64,000 bases of DNA from Flavobacterium sp. (GCF_035195345.1 NZ_CP136574.1:2653598-2717597), one strand, 5' to 3'; counted from the first letter of the stretch, positions 30,132 to 37,208 are shown. Numbers and translations: made by a program. Notes: a model not told the origin generated them from the letters alone.

Positions 30132-30917
30132 TTATTTGATTTTAAACTTACCTATAGTTGCATCAAAAGTCAAATGTTCGTTATCAAATAACGTATTGAA
30201 AATCTCAGTTTGAATCAAATTACAAGGTTGGTTTTGAACTATTTGAGTTGGTGTAAATATAATCATTTCATCACTCATTTGAATCGCTAAATCGATGTCA
30301 TGTGTAGAATAAAGGATGGTTTTACCCGTTTCGTGTGTGAGTTTTTGCAACAATTTCAATAAAGTTGCTTTGTGCACTAAATCTAAATGGGTTGTAGGTT
30401 CGTCTAAAATAATTACGGAAGTGTCTTGTGCCAAAGCGCGTGCGATCAAAGCAATTTGCAACTGACCATCACTAATTTCGTCTTGTTTTTTATGAATTAA
30501 ATGTTGGATTTCTGTTAATGTAATCGCTTCTTCAATTTTAGTTTTGTCTTCTTCAGATAAAGTGCCTAACCAATTGGTGTAAGGTTGTCTACCTAAAGCG
30601 ATGATTTCGTATACGGTTAAATTACTTGGTGGCAATTTTTCAGTTAATACGATGCTTAATTCTTGTGCTAAATCAAGTGGTTTGTAACTTTGAAGCGATT
30701 TATGGAGTAAAGAAACTTCGCCTTGTAAAGGAGGAATAATTCCTGTTAATGTTTTTAATAAAGTAGATTTCCCAATTCCGTTTTCACCTATTAAAGCAAT
30801 TAATTTGCCTTTTTCTAAACCAAGATTGATGTTTTGAGCAATAGTAATTGTTTCCGATTTGGTTTTGTAGCCAATCGAAAGGTTTTTGGTTTGTATGGTG
30901 AAATTTTGTTGGGTCAT
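30132..30917 (-). CDS. Cobalamin/Fe-siderophore ABC transporter ATPase (BtuD/FecE-like)
   Basis: Walker A GENGIGKST, ISDGQ signature, LDEPT; ATG at 30917 follows a TAnnTTTG box at 30927-30934. Confidence 0.88.
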   Translation of the reverse strand: MTQQNFTIQTKNLSIGYKTKSETITIAQNINLGLEKGKLIALIGENGIGKSTLLKTLTGIIPPLQGEVSLLHKSLQSYKPLDLAQELSIVLTEKLPPSNLTVYEIIALGRQPYTNWLGTLSEEDKTKIEEAITLTEIQHLIHKKQDEISDGQLQIALIARALAQDTSVIILDEPTTHLDLVHKATLLKLLQKLTHETGKTILYSTHDIDLAIQMSDEMIIFTPTQIVQNQPCNLIQTEIFNTLFDNEHLTFDATIGKFKIK

Positions 30918-30929
30918 TATGAAATACAA

Positions 30930-31118
30930 AAATAGGTTTTACCACATAGAAACATAGTTTTTTTTAGAGAGTTTTATTTAGAAACTAAAGTTTTGTATAG
31001 TTTTATTCTTTTTCAAACTTTTGAAATAGGTTTTACCACATAGAAACATTGATTTTTTTAAGAGTTTTATCTAGAAACTAAAGTTTTGTATAGTTTTATT
31101 CTTTTTCTAATTTTTTAA
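30930..31118. repeat. Two diverged tandem copies (94-bp period) carrying an ACCACATAGAAACAT arm and the 3' end of the GxxExxY gene
   Basis: AAATAGGTTTTACCACATAGAAACAT...AGAAACTAAAGTTTTGTATAGTTTTATTCTTTTTC starts at both 30930 and 31024. Confidence 0.9.
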
Positions 31119-31506
31119 AATATTCGTTTACAAAAGTTTTTTGACCTTCTCGGAATATATTGAAACAATTAAAGTTAATTATAATTCCTTTTGGGACTTT
31201 TAATAAGTTCATATAATTTAAAACTTGAGCATCATGAATTGGTTTTATTTCAGAAACAGACTTTAACTCGACTATTAAGCAATTTTCAACGAATAAATCA
31301 CAACGGAATTCAATATCAAGTTCTTTTCCTTTATAAACTACAGGAACTTTAAATTCGGAAACAAAATTTATATTTCTATTGGTTAATTCCTCTATAATAC
31401 ATTGTTGATAAACACTTTCTAATAATCCACTTCCCATGTTTTTATGTACTTCAATAGCCGCTCCAATAACTTTAAATGTGAGTTCGTCTAAATATTTCTG
31501 TGTCAT
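31096..31506 (-). CDS. GxxExxY protein (PD-(D/E)XK nuclease-like fold)
   Basis: GLLESVY motif; RCDLFVENCLIVELKS; AQVLNYM; GIIINF; 136 aa. Confidence 0.93.
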   Translation of the reverse strand: MTQKYLDELTFKVIGAAIEVHKNMGSGLLESVYQQCIIEELTNRNINFVSEFKVPVVYKGKELDIEFRCDLFVENCLIVELKSVSEIKPIHDAQVLNYMNLLKVPKGIIINFNCFNIFREGQKTFVNEYFKKLEKE

Positions 31507-31520
31507 ATTTTTTTTAATTT

Positions 31521-31624
31521 ACCACATTGAAACATAGATTAAAATTATTTCATTTACTCTATCTGTAAAAACAAGTTTTCTATAATAATCTCAACATAAA
31601 ATATACCTATGTATCTATGTGGTT
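31521..31624. repeat. Inverted-repeat element upstream of GxxExxY
   Basis: ACCACATTGAAACATAG (31521-31537) and CTATGTATCTATGTGGTT (31607-31624) are near-perfect inverted arms. Confidence 0.85.
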
Positions 31625-31643
31625 TTATTTTTTTTGTTTTAAT

Positions 31644-32669
31644 TTAAAAACGTTTCTTTCTAACTAATAACCAAATCACCACAGGTGCTCCAATTACTGA
31701 TGTTATTGCGTTTATTGGTAATGTAATATCATTTCCTGGAACTTGAGCAATCGTATCGCAACACAACATAACAATCGCACCAAGCAGAAGCGTACTCCAA
31801 AACAACACAAAATGATTACTCGTTTGAAACAACAATTTCGCCATATGTGGAACCGCCAACCCAATAAAAGCAATCGGACCTGCAAATGCGGTGATGCTTC
31901 CTGCTAAAATACTGGTTGCTATAATAATTAAAAAACGGGTTTTTTTATAGTTGATTCCTATACTTTGAGCGTATTTTTCTCCTAAAAGTAATGCGTTTAA
32001 AGGTTTTATAACCATAAAGCTAATAACTATTCCAATGAAAACAAAAACAGATAAAAGTGAAATTTCATTCCAAGATAAATTTGAAATACTTCCCATCGAC
32101 CAAAAAGTGAATTTCTGTAATTTTTCAGCCGAAGTAAAATACGACAAAACTGAAACAATCGCGCTGGTAAAACTTCCAAACATTAATCCTACAATTAAAA
32201 TGGCCATGGTGTCTTTCAGCTTTTGTGAAATTATTAAAACGGCCATAAAAACTAAAAAGCTACCTAAACTTGATGCTAAAATCAATCCGTAATTCGATAA
32301 AAAGAAAGTAGAAAGAAAAGTAGGTAAAAAGCCTGTTCCTAAAATGATAAAAGCCACTCCTAAACTTGCTCCAGAACTCAATCCTAAAACATAAGGTCCA
32401 GCTAATGGATTTCTAAACAACGTTTGCATTAATAAACCACTCATTGAAAGTCCAATTCCAACTAAAATAGCTGTTATGGCTTTTGGAAAGCGGAAATTCC
32501 ACAGAATAATTTCCCAACTTTTCTTACTCATTTCTTGCGATAAAAGTCCGTTAACCACTTCTTTCAAAGGAATAGAAACGGAACCTAAGCTAATATTAAC
32601 CAAAAACAAAAACACCATTGCTACAAGCAAGAGTATAAAAAGAAGGTTTTGTTTTTTGGTTAATGGCAT
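31644..32669 (-). CDS. FecCD/BtuC-family ABC permease
   Basis: LMQTLFRNPLAGPYVLGLSSGA, LLLGEKYAQSIG, IAFIGLAVPH. Confidence 0.92.
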   Translation of the reverse strand: MPLTKKQNLLFILLLVAMVFLFLVNISLGSVSIPLKEVVNGLLSQEMSKKSWEIILWNFRFPKAITAILVGIGLSMSGLLMQTLFRNPLAGPYVLGLSSGASLGVAFIILGTGFLPTFLSTFFLSNYGLILASSLGSFLVFMAVLIISQKLKDTMAILIVGLMFGSFTSAIVSVLSYFTSAEKLQKFTFWSMGSISNLSWNEISLLSVFVFIGIVISFMVIKPLNALLLGEKYAQSIGINYKKTRFLIIIATSILAGSITAFAGPIAFIGLAVPHMAKLLFQTSNHFVLFWSTLLLGAIVMLCCDTIAQVPGNDITLPINAITSVIGAPVVIWLLVRKKRF

Positions 32670-32708
32670 GCGCTGAATTTTTGGCTAAATTACGTTTTTT
32701 GGGATTTT

Positions 32709-32840
32709 AAACACATAGGCACATAGAAAAAATTAAAGTAAATTACTGTTAAAGCTATTTCATTACCACATAGCTATGTTGACTATGTAAAGTGAAACGC
32801 CTAAAATCGACATAAAGTTGAGCTATGTGACTATGTGTTT
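32709..32840. repeat. ~132-bp REP/MITE-like element, copy 1
   Basis: Arms AAACACATAGGCACATAG and CTATGTGACTATGTGTTT (17/18 inverted match); internal CACATAGCTATGTTGACTATGT. Confidence 0.85.
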
Positions 32841-32863
32841 CAATTTGAAGCTAGGTTTCAATT

Positions 32864-34813: not shown

Positions 34814-34821
34814 TACCTTTG
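34814..34821 (+). promoter_or_regulatory. Bacteroidota -7 promoter box for the riboswitch-btuB transcript
   Basis: TACCTTTG immediately 5' of the riboswitch. Confidence 0.65.
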
Positions 34822-34829
34822 CCCTCGAA

Positions 34830-35003
34830 TTTTGGTTGTTGTTTCTGAATTTTTCAAAACAACATTAAAAGGGAATTAGGTGTAATACCTAAGCTGTACC
34901 CGCAACTGTAAGCTATTAAGCTTGTTATTATCTACAATACCATTGTTCGCCTTGGCGAATGAGAAGGTTGATAACAAGACGCAAGCCAGGAGACCTGCCA
35001 CAT
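34830..35003 (+). promoter_or_regulatory. Cobalamin riboswitch
   Basis: AAAAGGGAA-TTAGGTGTAATACCTAA-GCTGTACCCGCAACTGTAA...ACCATTG...GAGAAGG...B12 box AAGCCAGGAGACCTGCC, upstream of a TonB-dependent receptor. Confidence 0.95.
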
Positions 35004-35100
35004 TCATTGAGTAACAAACTTTCGGGAAAAAAAGTTTGAGTATGGGTAAATTCTGTGCTTTTCTCCCAAATTATTAATTATTGATTGAAGTGATTGGTTT

Positions 35101-35233
35101 AAACACATAGTCACATAGTGTTTAGTTTATTTTAAAGGCTGTTTTAGAAAATGATTTTTACACATAGCACTATGTTGTCTATGTTAAATGAAATGCCTTT
35201 TTATGTTCTATTTCATCTACGATTCTATGTGTT
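35101..35233. repeat. ~133-bp REP/MITE-like element, copy 2
   Basis: Left arm AAACACATAGTCACATAG; internal CACATAGCACTATGTTGTCTATGTTAAATGAAATGCCT; degenerate right arm CTACGATTCTATGTGTT. Confidence 0.8.
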
Positions 35234-35270: not shown

Positions 35271-37208
35271 ATGAACAAAAAGTTTATTGGCTTAAGTGTA
35301 TTTACACTAGCTACTGCTTTTGCGTATGCACAAGAAACAGATACGCTAAAGGTGACCAATCTTAAAGAAGTGGTCGTTTCGGACACTAAATTTGCGCAAA
35401 GCAAAGAAAAATCAGGTAAAATTATTGAAGTCATTACATCGCAAGACTTAGAAGCAAAAAAAGGTCAAAATTTGGCTAACGTTTTGAGTCAAGTGGCTGG
35501 AGTGGAAATCAACGGGAATCAATCGTTTGGTGGAAAAAATTTAGGCTATTACATTCGTGGTGGTCGTAATCGTCAAGTTGCGATTTACATTGATGGTGTT
35601 CCAGTAACAGATGCTTCAGGAATTAATTTGGAGTATGATTTACGTTTGATTCCAGTGGAACAAATCGAGAAAATTGAAGTAATGAAAGGCGCTTCAAGTA
35701 CGTTATACGGAACTGGAGCAGCAACTGGAGTTATCAATATTACGTTAAAAAAATCAGCAAAAAAAGAAATTTCAGGGAATGCGTACATGAATATGGGAAC
35801 GCAAAATACTTCGGAAACTTCAAAAACAAGTGCACAAGATTTCAATCAGGGTGTATCGCTTAACGGAACCATTAATAAAGTTTCGTACATGACCACTTTA
35901 AATAGTACGGAGACCAAAGGAATGTCGGAAGCAGCAGGAGAAAATTTTGAAGAAGATTCATTTTCAAGAGTAAATGTGTTACAGAAAATGGGTTTCAAGG
36001 CGAATGATCAATTAAGTTTTGAGTTTTTTGGAAATTACGACCGAATTAAAAATACGTTTGACAATTCGTTTGATGGTTTTATTGCAAATTCTGATGATTT
36101 GAACAACAATAGTTTTTCGGAACAATTTAGAATTGGTTTTTTGCCAAAATACAAATACAATAAAGGAGAATTTGCAATTAATGCAGGAGTATCTACTATA
36201 GATAGAACAATAAATATCTCAAATTCTTGGTCTGGAACAGTTGATACATACAACTATACTGGTAGAACGGCATCTATCGACGCTTTTAATAAATACAATT
36301 TCAGTAAACAAGTATATTTAGTGGTTGGCGCTCAATATCAATATTTCGATATGACGCAAAAAGACGCTTATACCGATGTAGCAAGAGAAGGAGCAAAGTT
36401 CAATTTATTAGATCCTTATGCAACTGTTGTGTTTAATTCTGAATTTGGTTTGAACATTAACGCTGGAGCTCGTTTCAATACACATAGTGAATACGGAAAT
36501 CAAGTAGTGTATAATTTCAATCCGAGTTATTCATTTGAGAACTTACCTTTGAAAGTTTTAGCTTCTTATAGCACAGCTTTCATCACGCCAAGTTTATATC
36601 AATTATATGGTCCTTATGGAAATTTAGATTTAACTCCAGAAGAAAATGCTACGGCAGAATTAGGTTTTGAATCGCAATTATTAGACAAGAAATTAACCAT
36701 TAATGCAGTTGGTTTTTATAGAGAAGAGGGAAATACGTTTGGATTTTACACCAATCCAGTAACTTTTGTATCAAACTATATTAATATTGACGCCACTTTC
36801 AATGCAAAAGGAGTAGAAGCAAGTATTCGATACAATTTATCTGAAAGATTTAATATCGGAGGAAACTATACTTTCACAGAAGTTGAAAAACAATTAAACC
36901 GTTTAATTCCCAAACACAAAGGAAATGTAGATTTGAATTACAAATTTAAAAGAGGAACATTTGGAATCAATTATCAATTTGTTGATAAAAGAAGTGATGC
37001 TTATTATGATTCGAATATTTGGGCAACACAAGCTGTTAATTTAGCAACTTATCAATTGGTTAATTCTAATATTTCATACGAGTTGCTACCAAATCGTTTG
37101 CAAATATTTGGAGCAGTAACTAATATTTTAAACGACGATTTTCAAGAAGTAATTGGTTATAATACCAGAGGAAGAAATTACAAATTAGGTTTGAATTTTC
37201 TGTTTTAG
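35271..37208 (+). CDS. btuB: TonB-dependent cobalamin receptor
   Basis: Plug motifs (LKEVVVS, IRGG, IYIDGVP, IEVMKGASSTLYG, GVINI), C-terminal F, under a cobalamin riboswitch; signal peptide starts at ATG 35271. Confidence 0.88.
   Translation: MNKKFIGLSVFTLATAFAYAQETDTLKVTNLKEVVVSDTKFAQSKEKSGKIIEVITSQDLEAKKGQNLANVLSQVAGVEINGNQSFGGKNLGYYIRGGRNRQVAIYIDGVPVTDASGINLEYDLRLIPVEQIEKIEVMKGASSTLYGTGAATGVINITLKKSAKKEISGNAYMNMGTQNTSETSKTSAQDFNQGVSLNGTINKVSYMTTLNSTETKGMSEAAGENFEEDSFSRVNVLQKMGFKANDQLSFEFFGNYDRIKNTFDNSFDGFIANSDDLNNNSFSEQFRIGFLPKYKYNKGEFAINAGVSTIDRTINISNSWSGTVDTYNYTGRTASIDAFNKYNFSKQVYLVVGAQYQYFDMTQKDAYTDVAREGAKFNLLDPYATVVFNSEFGLNINAGARFNTHSEYGNQVVYNFNPSYSFENLPLKVLASYSTAFITPSLYQLYGPYGNLDLTPEENATAELGFESQLLDKKLTINAVGFYREEGNTFGFYTNPVTFVSNYINIDATFNAKGVEASIRYNLSERFNIGGNYTFTEVEKQLNRLIPKHKGNVDLNYKFKRGTFGINYQFVDKRSDAYYDSNIWATQAVNLATYQLVNSNISYELLPNRLQIFGAVTNILNDDFQEVIGYNTRGRNYKLGLNFLF

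Follow-up and report, generated by a model that had tools for sequence, protein, structure and literature searches.

The closest described counterparts of the system considered here are partnerships between a small enzyme and a set of dispersed repeats. REPIN-RAYT systems combine REP-associated tyrosine transposases (RAYTs) with doublets of REP sequences, the REPINs (PMC3116915; bioRxiv 10.1101/2021.07.10.451892). The Ssn family comprises GIY-YIG site-specific nucleases of single-stranded DNA (ssDNA) that are accompanied by NTS/SRM repeats (PMC11893778, 2025); cleavage and a role in transformation have been demonstrated for SsnA, and the authors of that work remarked that the architecture looks like an insertion sequence (PMC11893778). 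Here we describe a GxxExxY nuclease gene (gx) framed by short repeat arms, located in a 64,000-nucleotide stretch of the Flavobacterium sp. genome GCF_035195345.1 (NZ_CP136574.1:2653598-2717597), hereafter the window. The source genome, labelled G000, is complete, has a size of 2.75 Mb and a G+C content of 32%, and its nearest kin belong to the F. aquaticum / F. cucumis group of Flavobacterium species. We favour, with a probability of about 55%, the interpretation that the gene and its arms represent a lasting partnership of repeats and nuclease, comparable to REPIN/RAYT or NTS/Ssn but built around a different enzyme fold.

The gene and its arms form a discrete insert between two transporter genes that formerly overlapped. 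The upstream flank is a btuC-like permease gene of the FecCD family (31644-32669, minus strand; Pfam FecCD, E = 8.6e-82) that ends with the stop codon TAA at 31646-31644, and the downstream flank is a btuD-like gene for the ATPase of an ATP-binding cassette (ABC) transporter (30132-30916, minus strand; Pfam ABC_tran, E = 8e-30); the names btuC and btuD are reasonable assignments from gene context alone. Alignment with G022, the closest genome in the search for relatives, and with further relatives indicates that the ATPase most likely starts with the ATG at 30916-30914 rather than with an upstream TTG, so that the insert spans positions 30917-31643 on the minus strand (727 nt), from the permease stop to the ATPase ATG. 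In seven congeners the same junction is a TAATG stop/start overlap, the usual state of translationally coupled genes, and in G022, whose flanks are 88-92% identical, it reads TAA-TT-ATG. The tree of the flanking genes nests G022 within a 10-species group (support 96/97) whose nine other members all carry the cassette; the empty site of G022 is therefore a derived state, an almost scarless loss of the whole insert. The borders of the insert agree across three independent comparisons, namely the TAATG congeners, the loss in G022 and a step in sequence identity in F. tibetense (L095; see below). Thus, the permease-ATPase order is indeed interrupted, as the earlier note had it, by a discrete insert that the closest species lacks.

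Read in the orientation of the gene, the insert starts with a 19-nt leader immediately after the permease stop codon, followed by the left arm AACCACATAGATACATAG (31607-31624), which consists of two phased (C)ACATAG units and belongs to the inverted pairs I1 and I2, then by a 69-nt spacer (31538-31606) and by the gene-proximal right arm CTATGTTTCAATGTGGT (31521-31537). The ATG at 31506 lies 14-15 nt further on and opens an intact gene for a 136-amino-acid GxxExxY (PDDEXK_3) protein (31096-31506, minus strand), as indicated by the list of open reading frames, the profile matches and the AlphaFold2 model. Downstream of the gene, the right arm is met twice more on the minus strand, as CAATGTTTCTATGTGGT at 31051-31035 and as the distal right arm CTATGTTTCTATGTGGT at 30957-30941, and a 24-nt trailer separates the latter from the ATPase ATG. 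Re-reading the minus strand confirmed the positions that the earlier note had reported for the gene, the spacer and each of the four arm copies, and the gene does lie between direct copies of the right arm, its upstream part being a complete arm pair. That pair, with its spacer, resembles a gene-less element, yet it is devoid of the GGCGTTTCAC box found in other copies. Chance expectation, gauged together with 100 shuffles of the window, was 0.19 occurrences of the 17-nt arm with up to 3 mismatches; the window holds 8, a number reached by none of the shuffles. The four matches outside the insert form two gene-less inverted pairs, 32710/32823 and 35102/35217.

The presence of two distal right arms is due to a 94-nt tandem duplication that spans the last codons of the gene, the tail and the arm, with the first copy at 31024-31119 (containing the right arm at 31035-31051) and the second at 30930-31026 (containing CTATGTTTCTATGTGGT). 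The copies are 91-95% identical, and the duplication is polymorphic among close relatives: it is found in G000, L092, L093 and L097 and is absent from L091, L094, L095, L096, L098 and L104. An independent tandem duplication of ~130 nt in G019 (L003 1900-2140) runs from the tail of the cassette through the right arm into the ATPase gene, of which it takes in the first 30 nt; a decoy start for the ATPase thus precedes the genuine one. These two cases suggest that the right end of the cassette is prone to duplication.

The association of GxxExxY genes with such arms is not a peculiarity of this locus. The source genome carries five PF13366 genes, one of them a pseudogene, and all five are framed by inverted arms, each with an arm sequence of its own: ACCACATAGAAACATAG at the present locus and AACACATAGTCACATAG, ACATATAAGCCATATAAG, ACCGCAAAGAGCGCAAAG and CGCAAAGACGCAGAG at the others. 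The five proteins fall into two subfamilies that match the ACATAG/ATATAAG and the GCAAAG groups of arms. The paralogs are 30-70% identical (DNA identity is ~70% within a subfamily and lower between the two), and no near-identical copies of the gene-bearing form were found among these five. Four of the five cassettes are co-oriented with the upstream gene. The pseudogene (C1:1172559-1172945) has an in-frame TGA and is the only paralog whose arm type lacks dispersed gene-less copies.

A census of 25 genomes of the genus yielded 71 PF13366 hits in 19 genomes, of which 60 loci were fetched and combined with the five from the source genome. Flanking inverted repeats with a score of at least 15 were found at 53 of these 65 GxxExxY loci (82%), as compared to 2.4% of 250 control small genes, and two of the six controls above this threshold turned out to be GxxExxY genes themselves. 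Two to four direct units of 7-9 nt (e.g. CGCAGAT, CACAAAG, CACGGAT, CATTAAG, CACAAATT, CATATAAG and CACATAG) make up each arm, and the arrays are inverted across the gene; a single arm, such as CACATAG-nn-ACATAG, is not self-complementary. The unit sequence tracks the protein tree clade by clade (Mantel r = 0.55, with none of 2000 permutations as high), and the share of arm 6-mers held in common is 5% for proteins less than 30% identical and climbs to 65% for those more than 80% identical. Each GxxExxY subfamily thus has its own unit sequence. Both the enrichment of arms around GxxExxY genes and the co-variation of arm sequence with protein phylogeny had been proposed as tests in the earlier note, and both support its reading.

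At the present junction the gene is a long-standing inhabitant. Among the 80 sequences of the genome collection most closely related to the protein, 53 keep the permease-gx-ATPase order; these come from many Flavobacterium species, and pairwise gx identity tracks the identity of the flanks (r = 0.77). Within the group of the source genome, the synonymous divergence of gx is flank-like (dS 0.14-0.8), and the ratio of nonsynonymous to synonymous substitution rates (dN/dS) is 0.01-0.05 (about 0.02), a value that the transporter genes match or exceed. Taken together, locus retention, correlation with the flanks and low dN/dS make the gene an old, selected and mostly vertically inherited resident of the junction rather than a recent jumper. 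Decaying copies also occur: G012 has an internal stop, G019 has lost the start codon, and in L104 there is a frameshift. The earlier note had set fixation at this locus against its reading of the gene as mobile; the long residency is real, but in an even sample the gene occupies only 4 of 20 loci, so that it is not fixed in the genus. Other genomes have other occupants at the same junction, gene-less elements with CACAGATT-type and CTTAG-type arms in G015 and G008, and a different repeat in G016.

Against this background of vertical inheritance stands the cassette of F. tibetense. Compared to the source genome, the proteins encoded by its flanks are 76% and 69% identical and the cassette protein is 96% identical. 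DNA identity steps from ~70% to 85-92% within a few nucleotides of the permease stop and is ~65% just after the ATPase ATG. The cassette has dN of 0.009-0.015 and dS of 0.4-0.8, versus 0.17-0.24 and 1.4-2.1, respectively, for the flanks. By the identity step and the substitution contrast at the unit borders, the whole stop-to-start unit entered (or left) the F. tibetense junction long after the hosts diverged. The exchange included the leader and the trailer, no co-transferred host DNA was found in the F. tibetense flanks, and its borders are those of the G022 loss. With one horizontal gain and one clean loss, the whole unit can move. Two further candidates were dropped. The discordance in L104 (near-identical flanks, 78% protein identity) was withdrawn, as the DNA is 92-100% identical except for one 77% window and the low protein identity is due to a 1-nt insertion that makes the gene a frameshifted pseudogene. 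For L111 a second transfer is not claimed: its dN is 3-4 times below the flank values, but synonymous sites are saturated, and in a control pair, too, gx evolved more slowly than its flanks.

The 136-amino-acid protein matches PF13366 (PDDEXK_3; E = 2e-39, 135 bits, cut-off 22) and TIGR04256 (GxxExxY; E = 2e-40, 137.7 bits, cut-off 35). There were no other significant matches in Pfam or NCBIfam and thus none to an HUH Y1 transposase; M157_N_1 scored below its curated cut-off. Its motifs are G25xG27xxE30xxY33 (locally G27-L-L-E30-S-V-Y33), D70, E80xK82 (E80-L-K82) and Q94xxxY98. In an alignment of 55 sequences from the genus, the invariant or near-invariant positions are G25, G27, E30, Y33, D70, E80, K82, Q94, Y98, N111 and F112, with Q94 and Y98 conserved in at least 90%; by sequence comparison, these residues are assigned to motifs I-IV of the RecB family, QxxxY being one of them. 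The invariant or near-invariant columns of this alignment contain no cysteine, hence no sign of the four-cysteine Fe-S cluster of Cas4 proper. A sequence search of the PDB gave no match at E values up to 1. The AlphaFold2 model built from the 55 sequences has a predicted local distance difference test score (pLDDT) of 97, and its best match in Foldseek is the Cas4 protein SSO0001 (E = 1.5e-3, template modelling (TM) score 0.52), followed by lambda exonuclease; tRNA-splicing endonucleases and a homing endonuclease domain (the I-Bth0305I catalytic domain) were among the weaker fold matches. Motifs and model place the protein in the clade of RecB/Cas4-like PD-(D/E)XK nucleases, a similarity that is weak and carries no claim of orthology. 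By its fold we take it to be a metal-dependent DNA hydrolase. PF13366/TIGR04256 is a very large family to which, to our knowledge, no function has been assigned.

Gene-less members of the arm family occur near the cassette, as the earlier note supposed, and also throughout the genome. In the source genome such copies are 105-170 nt long, with terminal arms, the GGCGTTTCAC box and a central ACATAG/CTATGT palindrome. One of them, a sibling of the cassette that amounts to a 169-nt insert relative to G022, occupies positions 32695-32863 between the binding-protein and permease genes; it has AACACATAGnCACATAG arms at 32710-32726 and 32823-32839, an internal GGCGTTTCAC box and a central ACATAGCTATGT. 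A second sibling, of the CACATAG type, is located at 35102-35233 and is likewise absent from G022. Four of the five arm types are dispersed, with 7-20 copies each at up to 2 mismatches and none in random sequence of equal composition; the fifth, that of the pseudogene, is found beside its own gene alone. Intergenic DNA accounts for 11% of the genome and for 56 of the 58 arm hits. In G012, twelve gene-less copies make up a tight family of ~120 nt that is colinear with the right arm and with the left end of the G012 cassette, the parts of which are the arm, the box, the central palindrome and an inner GAAAC/GTTTC hairpin.

These elements turn over quickly between sister species. When the joined flanks of 12 elements of the source genome were searched in G022, six sites were continuous, i.e. 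without the element, and two or three were shared; the absent ones include all elements of the B12 locus and a second cassette together with its neighbouring element. The occupant of the junction between the binding-protein and permease genes is of the CACATAG type in G000, L091 and L098, of the CGCAAAG/CGCTAAG type in L092, L093, L094 and L096, of the CACGAATT type in L097 and L104 and of the CATATAAG type in F. tibetense, whereas the junction is empty in G022; each of these arm types matches a GxxExxY subfamily of the genus. The number of CACATAG-type arms per genome ranges from 96 in G001 and 93 in G012 through 21 in G000 to none in 14 genomes, and the reversed pattern used as a control gave at most one match per genome and none in nearly all. 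In G006 and G016 the binding-protein/permease junction (columns 730-960 of alignment A1) holds unrelated GC-rich perfect palindromes, such as GACCTGACAGGTTTTAAAAACCTGTCAGGTC in G016, which indicates that this junction collects several kinds of palindromic insert. Less regular arrangements were also seen. Outside the window, C1:2738280-2740560 contains ~250-nt repeats with serial units of the CACATAG, CACAGAG and CGGATTT types and GC-rich blocks, which are unlike the simple two-armed elements. Mixed unit types at the two ends, or nested elements, occur at C1:544498-544640, C1:2060454-2060542 and C1:1841776-1841985; they include an element that has CATATAAG as its left and CTATGTG as its right arm, CTTTGCG arrays that adjoin a CACATAG arm, and a 210-nt element that is bounded by CACATAG arms and encloses an arm of the CATATAAG type.

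In a persistent partnership, the nuclease would recognize arrays of its cognate units and cut at or near them, probably as a multimer that reads units spaced 8-9 nt apart. The nuclease would then stand to the gene-less elements as RAYTs stand to REPINs or SsnA to the NTS repeats, with a single-copy enzyme gene retained by the host and framed by the repeats upon which it acts. Recombination or slippage between the direct copies of the right arm could delete the gene and leave a gene-less element behind, and could equally give rise to tandem duplications such as the 94-nt one. Cleavage might drive the spread of the elements, or it may serve the processing of ssDNA or the control of recombination or transformation. 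A more far-reaching version, which we put forward as a tentative proposal well short of even odds, is that GxxExxY genes with phased-unit arms constitute a hitherto undescribed class of persistent intragenomic replicators, the PD-(D/E)XK counterpart of REPIN-RAYT. Selection would keep the nuclease for its cutting of cognate arms; cutting and host repair would make gene-less elements appear, disappear and replace one another at the junctions between genes and would occasionally carry the stop-to-start cassette from one species into the same junction of another.

Several observations weigh against a partnership of this kind. Co-divergence of arms and protein is also expected if the two are simply inherited as one unit, so that it is necessary for recognition and is not proof of it. 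CACATAG arms are present without a cognate gene in G015 (50 arms) and G022 (15 arms), and G021 has 14 CATATAAG-type arms and no PF13366 gene at all. The insert borders often lie ~20-25 nt beyond the arms. Neither the btu junction nor six occupied/empty pairs with G022 showed a consistent target-site duplication, and there were only ambiguous AT-rich matches of 2-3 nt. In the gene-less elements only short terminal stems pair arm to arm, and the elements do not fold clearly better than shuffled sequences (z from -0.6 to -2.1). Some simpler notions have been rejected altogether: the arms as the exact ends of the mobile unit, given that the G022 loss and the F. tibetense gain both include the leader and trailer; a strict dependence of the arms on a cognate gene, given that G015, G022, G020 and G021 carry arms and lack such a gene; and a long-hairpin, REPIN-like reading of the elements, since the terminal arms alone pair.

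Terminal inverted arms with multiple phased units are also what one would expect of an autonomous selfish transposon with multi-site ends, a cassette whose nuclease would act as the transposase that moves both the cassette and its gene-less derivatives. Such an explanation would account for five paralogous cassettes at unrelated loci of one genome, for a horizontal gain with breakpoints at the insert borders and a clean loss, and for gene-less copies that resemble deletion derivatives, just as miniature inverted-repeat transposable elements (MITEs) derive from insertion sequences. We nevertheless consider it unlikely. Inheritance at this one locus is mostly vertical across 53 genomes, the gene is under constraint equal to or stronger than that on the transporter genes (dN/dS ~0.02), paralogs that are only 30-70% identical include no near-identical copies within the genome, and no target-site duplication was found. 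Furthermore, PD-(D/E)XK enzymes hydrolyse DNA, and we know of no lone hydrolase of this fold that joins DNA strands or carries out strand transfer; TnsA, for one, needs TnsB. The earlier note's reading of an autonomous form of a mobile element is weakened by the residency in 53 of 80 relatives, the correlation with the flanks and the low dN/dS, and its analogy to RAYT/REP pairs with another class of enzyme fits well, including the vertical inheritance of a single-copy gene.

Still less probable, in our view, is a process resembling homing, in which the gene-less palindromic elements came before the gene as targets, the nuclease cuts them and repair copies the gene into its own recognition site. 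Only one or two gene-bearing copies per arm type face tens of gene-less ones, with no sign of ongoing invasion, and the F. tibetense segment, in which the leader and trailer outside the arms are included, has no co-converted flank. Strong purifying selection and long vertical residency are unusual for homing genes, which typically cycle through decay, and the spread of the gene-less elements would go unexplained. This idea does gain from G001 and G012, where the gene adjoins the central ACATAG/CTATGT palindrome of an otherwise complete element, from the occurrence of arms in genomes without the gene, as expected of targets, and from the co-divergence of protein and site; homing endonucleases of the PD-(D/E)XK fold are known, and one of them, I-Bth0305I, contributes its catalytic domain to the weak fold matches. 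The least probable of the alternatives, which we regard as quite improbable, is that the arms act at the RNA or regulatory level, as intercistronic stem-loops that stabilize, uncouple or process operon mRNA in the manner of REPs in the mal and his operons, with the nuclease as a passenger or acting on RNA. The location of three elements in successive non-coding gaps of a single locus for B12 transport, including one that separates a riboswitch from a start codon, agrees with it, as do the intergenic position of 56 of 58 arms, the co-orientation of four of five cassettes with the upstream gene and the tRNA-splicing endonucleases among the weak fold matches; but the elements have no Rfam match and fold not clearly better than shuffled sequences, and sister species with different element types or none at the same junction imply that the operon needs no particular one. 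The RecB-family motifs, QxxxY among them, point to a DNA nuclease.

The surroundings of the cassette bear on its expression and possible effects. The gene for a periplasmic binding protein is located upstream of the permease gene, as identified by profile search, and the Rfam search found a cobalamin riboswitch at 34816-35016, ahead of a divergent gene for a TonB-dependent receptor; this was the sole Rfam match, the elements giving none. The gene-less element at 35102-35233 is situated between the riboswitch, which ends at 35016, and an ATG near 35274 with which the receptor gene probably starts, and it could alter riboswitch control of the receptor. A terminator scan of the cassette found none, and a sigma-70 scan, which does not cover the promoter types of Bacteroidota, found fewer promoter-like sites than in shuffled sequences. 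Because there is no recognizable terminator and the cassette is co-oriented with the operon, its expression probably depends on read-through. Elsewhere in the genome, outside the window, a gene of another family is similarly arranged: a bAvd-like four-helix-bundle gene (23S_rRNA_IVP, PF05635, E = 1.6e-31; C1:1639748-1640116, minus strand) is likewise framed by inverted arrays, of GTC(G/A)CAG, making this a second small-gene family with the cassette architecture.

A single operon thus displays residency under selection, near-scarless loss, border-precise horizontal gain and the replacement of one element type by another between sister species. The locus also offers a cheap and concrete test, with one protein of 136 amino acids, one cognate arm of 17 nt and the arms of the paralogs as built-in controls of specificity. 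If the unit arrays do programme the enzymes, nature would offer in this family a large collection of small nucleases with site specificity, as has been argued for Ssn. Elements inserted between translationally coupled genes, or between a riboswitch and a start codon, may in addition matter for the evolution of operon expression.

Our literature search found no paper that links PF13366/TIGR04256 to repeats or describes a repeat-nuclease design of this kind; new here are the enzyme fold, the build of the arms, in which direct units are phased within inverted arrays, and a cassette that extends as a discrete unit from stop to start codon. The best structural matches of the enzyme are Cas4/RecB proteins (SSO0001, PDB 4ic1; lambda exonuclease, 1avq), with which it has the motifs E, D, ExK and QxxxY in common, although the match is weak (TM ~0.5, 15-20% identity, E = 1.5e-3). 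Unlike Cas4, the GxxExxY proteins are only 125-138 amino acids long, have no conserved four-cysteine Fe-S motif in the alignment and occur here in no CRISPR context. Terminal inverted repeats with several phased units that look like binding sites are a feature of insertion sequences and MITEs, Tn7, Mu and IS21, and insertion sequences, too, have gene-less derivatives (their MITEs) that align with the ends of the element carrying the gene. The cassette differs from all of these in having no DDE, HUH or serine/tyrosine recombinase, no detected target-site duplication and no near-identical copies within the genome, and in its mostly vertical inheritance.

The resemblance to the Ssn system is one of architecture: in both, the gene for a small single-domain nuclease has its own dispersed repeats on both sides, and each homologue has its own repeat variant. 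The fold, however, is GIY-YIG there and PD-(D/E)XK here, the SRMs are hairpin-forming inverted repeats of 20-50 nt whereas the present arms are phased direct units in inverted arrays 70-600 nt apart, and the activity of SsnA has been demonstrated whereas that of the GxxExxY protein is predicted. From REPIN-RAYT the system differs in its enzyme, a PD-(D/E)XK RecB/Cas4-like hydrolase instead of an HUH Y1 transposase similar to the TnpA of IS200/IS605, in arms that are direct arrays of 7-9-nt units instead of individually palindromic REP hairpins in inverted doublets, and in copy number, which is in the tens per genome here and in the hundreds there. We know of no mobilizing activity for a GxxExxY enzyme. 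What the two systems have in common is that the repeats dispersed through intergenic DNA also frame the gene for the enzyme, a low number of such genes (one or a few) for each type of repeat, long-term vertical inheritance under purifying selection, turnover of the repeats and co-divergence of repeat and enzyme.

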